Below are positions 5,660 through 6,780 of a stretch of 9,411 bases of DNA, in pieces. Position 1 is the first letter of the stretch. Each line of letters starts with the position of its first letter. The stretch comes from Escherichia coli (GTDB taxonomy: Bacteria > Pseudomonadota > Gammaproteobacteria > Enterobacterales > Enterobacteriaceae): NCBI RefSeq assembly GCF_003334335.1, contig NZ_QOWQ01000066.1; one strand, written 5' to 3'. Both the position numbers and the translations under genes were made by a program. The notes beneath the pieces were generated by a model. It searched no databases. It was not told the DNA's origin and saw only the letters and a list, made by a program, of their open reading frames with translations.

Positions 5660-6780
5660 TCAATATGAGGTAAAATTTTTTGTTGATTTAATGGTTAAAT
5701 GATAACCACAGTGTATTTTGCTGCTGAAGAAAGACAAAATGAATCTGTGTGTCCCCTCCTTCCCTTCGGAGCACATCCACTATTCAAATTTTACACAACC
5801 ACGTACGAACAAAAAGCATCATCCCGGGTATTGCAGATACCGGTTTCCTGCCGGGAAGAATCATAAACAGAACACCGGGAATAACGCCTTCAGGAATCAC
5901 CCCCCTCCTGAAGAAGAATAAAATAAAGAAGACTACAGTTCCTGCACTGAATGCTGAGTACAATATTTTATGGACAGGATGACATTTTTATAAATAACAA
6001 AAACCATTTAATACTGATACATCAATAAAATACTTCTTCCCTGCTGACACAGATAAAATGCACCATTTTTTCTTCAAATACTTCTGTATAATCGCCAGCC
6101 AATGATGAGAATGGATTAAAATAACACTTCTTCGACAAACACAAAAACAGCCTTCATTTTACATCATCATCCAGTTTCAGTTAACCCCGGACGAGCGACA
6201 GTGTTTCAGTACAGGAATTAAAAGCCAGCTTTTGCTCAGTAAAACACACTCAACTAATAATATCTCAGCAGATATTATCCTGACCAGGACACCTCACATT
6301 ACTGAATTCTCTTCCGACAGTATCACTGCACAAATAAAAAAGAACGGGATAAATATTCAGACCGGAAGAATGGTGTCACAAAAGCATTTAATCATTACGC
6401 ATGACCAGGAAGGGAAACACTTAACCACATGGTATCAACAGATATCATTACGTGTGCACTCTTATAAAAAACACACAGAAGAAGTAAGATAATTATAAAC
6501 GTAAATTTAATATCTCCCACTGACATCTCCCCCACAATACACTAAAAAATACTCACAGCAGTAAACACAGACACACCTGATAATCATACAGCCGATAAAT
6601 ATTTTCCCCTTTACGGAGAAATCAGCCTGCTGTTTAACAATAACGGCGTATTTTCATGGAAGGAGATCACCCAGTAACGGATAAGTCCTGATCTCCTTCA
6701 TGTTAATACGCAACAATCCCATCGATTCAAAACAATTTCAGACAGATATTATCTCCGTGAATCCCCCGCCACCTTTCCGG
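5660..6780. other. AT-rich (~37% GC by eye), ORF-poor spacer with strong strand asymmetry (+ strand A/C-rich, G-poor); probable module junction
   Basis: No minus-strand ORF of 60 aa or more and only three short, low-complexity + ORFs without SD. Composition differs clearly from the ~50-55% GC of flanking genes. Contains a perfect TATAAT hexamer at 6087..6092 (+). Confidence 0.6.
6659..6699. repeat. 11-bp perfect inverted repeat (gaaggagatca / tgatctccttc) with 19-nt spacer, ~120 nt upstream of the GTPase start
   Basis: Arms 6659..6669 and 6689..6699 are exact reverse complements. The left arm contains an SD-like AGGAG; the right arm abuts an ATG at 6700. Potential RNA hairpin or protein-binding site. 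Confidence 0.55.

Follow-up and report, generated by a model that had tools for sequence, protein, structure and literature searches.

What lies in the 1.2 kb that separate a YfjI-family (DUF3987) gene from a YfjP/YkfA/YeeP-family GTPase gene in an integrative island of Escherichia coli, and which parts of it have a function? The stretch is found in contig NZ_QOWQ01000066.1 (assembly GCF_003334335.1), inside the 9,411-nucleotide segment that was analysed, henceforth called the window. A first-pass annotation had described positions 5660 to 6780 as a spacer without a credible open reading frame (ORF), looking like a junction between two island modules, and had proposed that it could be an H-NS-silenced regulatory region, a decayed gene or a non-coding RNA. 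The reading that we favour, with moderate confidence, is that two modules of a CP4-57/CP4-44-like island meet in this gap, a non-coding junction of composite nature. Its left ~100 bp would serve yfjI as a promoter region with a conserved palindromic candidate operator, and its right ~94 bp would be the promoter of a GTPase-IsrC-Ag43 unit. Between these ends there would be a 66-nt palindrome and ~950 bp of AT-rich, E. coli-specific filler, drifting in a roughly neutral fashion in a variable slot of the island.

When the start codons annotated in RefSeq are used (an ATG at 5589 for YfjI, rather than a TTG at 5658, and position 6819 for the GTPase), the intergenic gap runs from 5590 to 6818 and measures 1229 bp. 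The interval first delimited is non-coding as proposed, and the true gap is somewhat wider. The left neighbour occupies 4105..5589 on the − strand, as annotated in a RefSeq locus 99.8% identical to the window, and the right neighbour occupies 6819..7691 on the + strand. Gene order in that RefSeq locus, which identifies the window as part of a CP4-57/CP4-44-like integrative island, is: an AlpA-like helix-turn-helix gene, a hypothetical gene, YfjI (−), the gap, the GTPase (+), IS102/IsrC and agn43. At all places examined, RefSeq has no annotation for the gap itself.

The stretch is by no means peculiar to one strain. At least 80% of the gap was found in 1858–1868 of the 5426 complete E. coli genomes searched (~1,860, about a third), and carrier genomes often hold it in more than one island copy. 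Carriers include strains O26:H11 97-3250, ST131 EC958 and Nissle 1917. Among the matches listed, no annotated feature lies beneath the gap, and its neighbours are constant, with YfjI (−) on one side and GTPase (+)-IsrC-Ag43 on the other. For comparison we used six alleles that fall into three lineages: the window type, AZ153/GPEC709/UPEC 26-1, and MEI005/ETEC4069. All six show the same arrangement of YfjI (−), a gap of 1183–1340 bp and GTPase (+), followed by Ag43/Cah.

Support for a junction comes from the fact that each end of the gap travels with the gene next to it. When relatives of the GTPase were scanned, taking one genome per species (31 loci), YfjI was found within 4 kb upstream in none of them. 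The only part of the gap shared by the GTPase loci of other genera is the last ~94 nt (6725..6818), and this block was detected from E. albertii to Yersinia, Hafnia, Serratia, Photorhabdus, Xenorhabdus and Pectobacterium. In keeping with this boundary, island SpLE1 of the O157 strain Sakai shares gap sequence from 6730 onward only. On the opposite side, distant YfjI loci share no more than the first ~70 nt of the gap, and there the palindrome at 5620..5655 is the one common element.

What stands between the two shared ends varies from island to island. In CP4-57 of K-12, abpAB, yfjM and rnlAB fill the slot that extends from yfjI/yfjJ to the yfjP promoter. In Hafnia, Serratia, Enterobacter, Lelliottia, Photorhabdus, Cedecea and Pectobacterium, an ORF of 300–400 aa lies just upstream of the conserved box of the GTPase promoter, on the same strand (two examples, in coordinates local to their loci, are 2925..3875 and 2999..3916). 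These ORFs have 33–40% GC and evolve very fast, and in some loci their stop codon is inside the box; they gave no match in NCBIfam except one weak, C-terminal, RepA-like similarity, and none in PADLOC except a marginal one. Because K-12 cargo and the ORFs of other genera stand at the same position, the core of the gap (5700..6645) can be said to occupy the variable slot of the island. As yfjI is inverted relative to alpA in the window, the slot is flanked here by divergent promoters, unlike in CP4-57. Judged by these alignments, the two module boundaries are well defined, and the suspicion of a junction was correct.

The element that distant YfjI loci have in common is an operator-like inverted repeat at 5620..5655, 30–66 nt upstream of the yfjI start, in which four GCTATT/AATAGC half-sites surround a perfect GCTATTAATAGC. 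A stretch of 18 nt within it is invariant among alleles, and the palindrome is kept upstream of YfjI genes that are ~52% identical, including the alpA-yfjI intergenic region of K-12. The segment 5590..5709 has a fold z of −2.7 on the − strand. The probable role of the palindrome is that of an operator recognised by AlpA or YfjI, or of an initiator-binding site.

The last of these options brings to mind a different view of the whole gap, namely that it is a replication origin at which the helicase-like YfjI acts after excision of the island, as in P4-like satellites and phage-inducible chromosomal islands. AT-rich DNA does lie immediately upstream of a helicase-like gene, and a conserved palindrome with multiple half-sites (GCTATT four times) is at hand. 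However, iteron arrays are missing: no tandem repeats were found in the gap, its direct-repeat families have two copies only, and k-mer counts stay within the range of shuffled sequences. In addition, distant YfjI loci have only the 36-bp palindrome in common with the gap, and in K-12 it is found in the short alpA-yfjI gap; the core of ~1 kb is not conserved with YfjI in relatives. An origin is, in our opinion, exceedingly improbable, and we keep to a yfjI promoter region as the reading of the left end.

At the right end, the block shared across genera begins with a promoter. Its −35 element is TTCAAA (6726–6731) and its −10 element is TATTAT (6747–6752), with a 15-nt spacer; the K-12 yfjP counterpart has TTGAAA-15-TATCAT at the same place. 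The promoter box as a whole (6726..6753, + strand) can be aligned with that of K-12 yfjP and with 17 further loci. Its 24-nt core (6730..6753) is 88–96% identical in most Enterobacterales loci in which the GTPase coding sequence is 60–69% identical, and 67–79% identical in three of the most distant loci. In a study of RNA polymerase binding by genomic SELEX (systematic evolution of ligands by exponential enrichment), the box was listed as the constitutive sigma-70 promoter of K-12 ykfA and yfjP (Shimada et al. 2014, PMC3946193). That work gives the two hexamers and their spacing only; conservation of the whole box, its 15-nt spacer included, and the hairpin and U-tract described below are added here, and a limited literature search disclosed no earlier account either of the cross-genus conservation or of the hairpin with its U-tract. 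The consensus of the box is a 21-bp near-palindrome (ATAATTTCAG-A-CAGATATTAT) that overlaps the promoter, which points to an operator at this site.

Between 10 and 20 nt past the box stands a GC-rich hairpin (6764–6789) and then a T-run (6790–6802), both on the + strand; GGGA and the ATG of the GTPase gene follow. The 5′ end of the transcript is predicted near 6759–6761. The corresponding promoter-leader block lies at 11610..11712 of one other locus and at ~3905..4003 in a series of further loci (coordinates local to each locus). Across three classes of loci the sequence of the hairpin is wholly replaced and its structure is kept, and in class A changes are found on both sides of the stem. The T-run is retained in two of the three classes; Pectobacterium has no clear one. 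From sequence and predicted folding, hairpin and T-run look like a leader terminator, an attenuator or a 5′ stabilising stem. The first-pass annotation had also pointed out a perfect TATAAT at 6087..6092, directed rightward. The hexamer is present as described, but it is at chance level: 0.96 are expected and one is observed on each strand, 62% of shuffled sequences contain at least one on the + strand, a −35 partner is lacking, and the site does not appear in the promoter-scan listing. The proposal of a regulatory region is borne out for the two ends, with the yfjI operator-like palindrome on the left and the GTPase promoter and leader hairpin on the right.

Is the core coding, or was it ever? 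The longest open frame (6109..6489, + strand, 127 codons) is longer than that of 98% of mononucleotide shuffles. Its first start codon is a TTG at 6232, which corresponds to a listed ORF at 6232..6492. This frame is interrupted in alleles AZ153 and MEI005 by indels that are not multiples of three, as are 31 of the 37 distinct gap runs between alleles, and no ORF common to all three lineages was found. Codon periodicity of variable sites was absent from all 150-nt windows of the gap (chi-square p of at least 0.07 in every one). The same test applied to the neighbours gave p = 4e-13 for YfjI (48/36/117 sites by codon position) and p = 8e-16 for the GTPase (9/7/59).

Protein searches agree with this outcome. 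Six-frame fragments of the gap had no family match in NCBIfam or PHROGs, and a word search of 5.8 billion proteins with the 127-aa frame yielded only partial hypothetical calls, all of them from E. coli. All open frames of at least 27 aa were also concatenated into a blastx-like query of 1197 aa for a HMMER scan; in 1.84 billion representatives, it retrieved only ORF calls of 26–146 aa from the same E. coli locus. We conclude that the gap is non-coding, with no credible ORF on either strand, no protein homologues beyond E. coli in the sets searched and no recognisable frameshifted gene covering it.

One candidate distant homologue (P0030) had to be discarded. It showed 35% identity and appeared to be syntenic with a 28%-identical “YfjI”. 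Its source is a 2538-nt Logan contig from SRR33321306, which turned out to be the E. coli locus upstream of yfjI with A and G exchanged throughout: among 2125 aligned bases there are 490 A→G and 420 G→A changes. The similarity is thus an artefact of a base-swapped contig, of the sort that seeds false distant homologues in protein databases.

A related possibility is that one or several genes, former cargo of the variable slot, have eroded into the present core and decayed past recognition. In its favour, the slot bears genes in K-12 and, in other genera, an AT-rich + strand ORF before the GTPase box; the 127-codon frame surpasses most shuffled sequences, as said above; and near-neutral divergence together with many indels is the pattern of a pseudogene. 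However, none of the protein sets mentioned contains anything similar from another locus, and searches with tblastn and family hidden Markov models, in which the positional-counterpart ORFs, YfjH-like ORFs and K-12 cargo proteins were used, detected no likeness to the gap. Furthermore, the composition of the core, with A>T and C>G, matches neither strand of the coding genes of related loci. Any decay must also be older than the split of the three allele lineages, as these are equally ORF-free. Thus the earlier suggestion of a decayed gene finds no remnant to stand on; we consider erosion beyond recognition unlikely, if worth bearing in mind, and prefer to regard the core as non-coding filler.

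Evidence for a functional RNA was sought next to that for a protein. In a covariance scan of the whole window against Rfam at E ≤ 1, the only match was IS102 (the IsrC RNA) at 7808..8044 (67.8 bits, E 6e-10), and the gap was devoid of matches. On either strand, fold z-scores over 5630..6589 stay within −1.8 to +2.3 and are near 0 over 5710..6590; the only elements that stand out in folding are the 66-nt palindrome and the end elements. No covariation was detected in the core in the alignment of alleles. As to transcripts, supplements of RNase E-CLASH (cross-linking, ligation and sequencing of hybrids) contain no reads near the Sakai counterpart, Sakai being a strain that lacks the core; tables of 3′ ends in K-12, which also lacks it, list none upstream of yfjP; and a literature search on Nissle 1917 provided no evidence of transcription of the gap.

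These data bear on the idea that the gap encodes a functional non-coding RNA, be it a small RNA (sRNA) or a long leader, either 5′ of yfjI or in front of the GTPase operon. On the + strand, the gap ends in a terminator-like hairpin followed by a T-run; sRNAs are frequent in islands of this kind, with IsrC 1 kb downstream and Esr41 in SpLE1; and the G+T excess of the − strand is the signature expected of a sense strand that has long been transcribed. Against the idea, Rfam provides no family, the core has neither fold signal nor covariation, and its divergence is near neutral. Moreover, the terminator belongs to the conserved promoter-leader block of the GTPase, which begins only ~40 nt upstream of it, and the K-12 and Sakai data show nothing at the counterparts. 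A functional RNA is therefore very unlikely, and the non-coding RNA initially envisaged receives no support. Esr41, an sRNA of ~70 nt from enterohaemorrhagic E. coli that has a terminator, was considered specifically as the GTPase leader and rejected: the window does not contain its published sequence, and in SpLE1 it is encoded at another place, from z1181 to z1182 in the intervening DNA. As a separate observation, the IsrC match sits between the GTPase gene and agn43, an order also seen in K-12 yeeP-isrC-flu.

Jukes-Cantor divergence of the gap between lineages is 0.12–0.28, to be compared with synonymous divergence (dS) of 0.15–0.28 for YfjI and 0.10–0.15 for the GTPase; the ratio of nonsynonymous to synonymous divergence (dN/dS) is ~0.25 for YfjI and ~0.08 for the GTPase. 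Gaps make up 9–19% of the alignment columns between alleles, and mosaic identity profiles denote recombination between allele lineages. No homologue of the core was found outside E. coli in the genome, plasmid, phage and viral-contig collections searched. The plasmid and phage searches matched only the 66-nt palindrome and mislabelled chromosomes, and when viral contigs were scanned for an invariant 16-mer, the hits were a single E. coli copy and 11 matches due to chance. As far as allele comparison can tell, the core drifts at about the neutral rate, that is, the synonymous rate of its neighbours.

Indels among alleles include two that deserve description. AZ153-type alleles carry an insertion of 71 nt with a perfect palindrome, GATCACGGTTTGGCCAAACCGTGATC (~3790..3860 of the AZ153 locus, alignment columns 862–932), and a separate insertion of 29 nt between short CAGGA repeats. 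Small indels of this sort, palindromic or due to slippage, are typical of DNA free of constraint. Insertion sequences were also encountered. The closest RefSeq relative of the window, O26 strain 97-3250, has an insertion of ISEc22 (IS66 family) in the hypothetical gene between alpA and yfjI, at 1415..3750 of its locus, which the window (~3454) lacks; in Sakai SpLE1 and strain MFDS1001074, IS66-family elements replace or truncate the left part of the gap.

Between the core and the GTPase promoter lies the 66-nt palindromic repeat (6646..6712), made of inverted repeats that fold strongly (ΔG −30 kcal/mol, fold z = −6.4). It is absent from the MEI005 allele, which shows an alignment gap there. 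Copies are found at unrelated loci of islands, phages and plasmids: 3′ of the horizontally acquired genes cdtC (in pVir-type plasmids) and eaaC (in phage P-EibC), and near ibrAB/perC; in coordinates local to their loci, three copies are at 2501..2564, 2501..2567 and 1501..1559. The repeat occurs at 1–6 places per genome in 2717 genomes, about half of the complete E. coli genomes, and has been annotated just once, as a stem_loop in phage P-EibC. In its behaviour it is reminiscent of small palindromic units of the mobile or terminator type.

In base composition, the interval 5660..6780 has 38.1% GC, with A 36.2%, C 23.3%, G 14.8% and T 25.7% on the + strand (GC skew −0.22, AT skew +0.17), in agreement with the AT-rich, G-poor character first noted between the YfjI-like gene and the GTPase gene; over the whole gap, G is 14.8–15.1% and A is 36%. 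The flanking genes have 45.3% GC (YfjI) and 59.2% GC (GTPase), and the whole window 50%. An A/C-rich, G-poor stretch had been placed at roughly 6230..6600. This sub-stretch does have the strongest bias within the gap (36.1% GC, G 12.9%, A 41%), but its limits were drawn too narrowly, as the bias spans nearly the entire core, ~5700..6645. Windows of 78 nt with C/G > 1 amount to 89% on the + strand, where the median C/G is 1.59, and to 8% on the − strand. The combination of A>T with C>G is absent from genes of either strand in the related loci. With A and C in excess on the + strand, the − strand is enriched in G and T, as would be expected of a leading or non-template strand exposed over a long time.

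Composition of this kind invites two functional speculations. With 38% GC in a window of 50%, and within an island, the core has the properties of xenogeneic DNA and, going by its composition, may be bound by H-NS like other DNA of foreign origin. Matches to the high-affinity H-NS motif are at chance level, with 8 observed and 7.05 expected in the window. The + strand also has the composition of a Rho utilisation (rut) region, with C>G in a poorly structured, untranslated stretch of at least 80 nt. Accordingly composed RNA would be a good Rho substrate if transcribed rightward and a poor one if transcribed leftward. Since a rightward transcript would be untranslated, weakly folded and richer in C than in G, it would be ended by Rho, by the palindrome or by the leader hairpin before reaching the GTPase gene. 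Both H-NS silencing and Rho loading, which the first-pass annotation had raised, are plausible in view of the composition. Under the composite-junction reading, the role of the core would be no more than that of a passive spacer or insulator, kept silent, that separates the yfjI promoter from the divergent GTPase promoter.

A stronger version of the same idea is that the core is maintained by selection as a directional insulator and silencing platform, where H-NS nucleates and Rho loads on rightward RNA. Selection would act on composition and length, not on sequence, with the palindrome and the leader hairpin as a backup to Rho; the yfjI module would thus be kept apart from the GTPase-Ag43 module, leftward transcription would be tolerated, and H-NS would cover both promoters. 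Three traits fit this proposal: a length of ~1.2 kb is kept across lineages up to K = 0.28 apart; the strand bias, with its marked asymmetry of C/G between strands, is present in all alleles; and + strand RNA from the 38% GC core folds very weakly (−5 to −20 kcal/mol per 120 nt). On the other side, most of the core lacks constraint on its primary sequence, H-NS motif matches do not exceed chance, and O157 Sakai SpLE1 and other islands have the GTPase module without the core. Weak folding also loses weight as an argument, because a fold z of about 0 makes it a by-product of composition. We regard selective maintenance of this kind as improbable, and neutral filler between two functional ends continues to be our preferred interpretation.

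Several observations nevertheless weigh against filler that simply drifts, and they should be considered together. First, the gap is retained in ~1,860 genomes, and its length stays at 1183–1340 bp in lineages as much as 0.28 substitutions per site apart; since bacterial genomes usually tend to lose DNA by deletion, such retention is a hint of some selection on the core. Second, the six alleles are alike in base composition (A ~37%, C ~22.5%, T ~25%, G ~15%), and all of them keep the skews (GC skew −0.2, AT skew +0.18). Third, no neutral process has been demonstrated as the source of the A+C strand bias. Mutation bias and selection are both candidate causes of it. Fourth, 50-nt blocks within 5790–5865, 5958–6030 and 6459–6508 are conserved far above the average. 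Blocks above average are also found at the gap ends (5615–5690 and 6724–6818). The most conserved block of the core, 5790..5865, has 86–90% invariant columns (binomial tail ~1e-6 to 1e-7). It is relatively GC-rich, has CCCGG/CCGGG hairpin potential and is near an apparent recombination breakpoint between allele lineages; in the AZ153 allele, the two changes in the 5826–5856 hairpin are non-compensatory. An alternative cause is that recombination mosaicism could have produced the conserved blocks of the core.

Altogether, the finding is largely ordinary, and clear evidence of function is confined to the short conserved elements at the ends. Its interest is of three kinds. One is cartographic: roughly one in three complete E. 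coli genomes carries this unannotated 1.2 kb, which contains no gene and no known RNA, the automated ORF calls derived from it in public databases are spurious, and the module boundaries of a very common family of Ag43-carrying islands become fixed. Another concerns regulation. Two cis-elements, the yfjI palindrome and the GTPase promoter/near-palindrome with its hairpin, are more constrained than the genes they precede, and offer entry points to the regulation of the poorly understood YfjI and YfjP/YkfA/YeeP modules. Finally, the fact that the core is conserved in composition only makes it a small, testable case of selection on base composition and length.

Comparison with known systems helps to place the gap. 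In sequence features it is similar to H-NS-silenced and “promoter island” DNA: it has a GC content of 38% (in a genome of ~50%), a location in an island, divergent flanking genes, promoter-like hexamers scattered at chance density and no product. However, 1.2 kb is long for an intergenic region of E. coli. To our knowledge, a strong A+C strand bias has not been described as a property of H-NS-silenced intergenic regions. The gap resembles rut regions in having C>G (89% of the 78-nt windows) and in its untranslated, weakly folded RNA. It differs from them in that C is only 23% and A is abundant, in that the bias extends over ~1 kb instead of ~80 nt, and in that no promoter feeding it has been established. 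IsrC/IS102 and Esr41 belong to the same kind of island, and IsrC is encoded 1 kb downstream, but neither is inside the gap. Another parallel is the cargo slot of CP4-57. The gap is gene-free and has no sequence in common with the K-12 cargo; it occupies, however, the same position, and in both islands the conserved promoter-hairpin block of the GTPase forms the right boundary.

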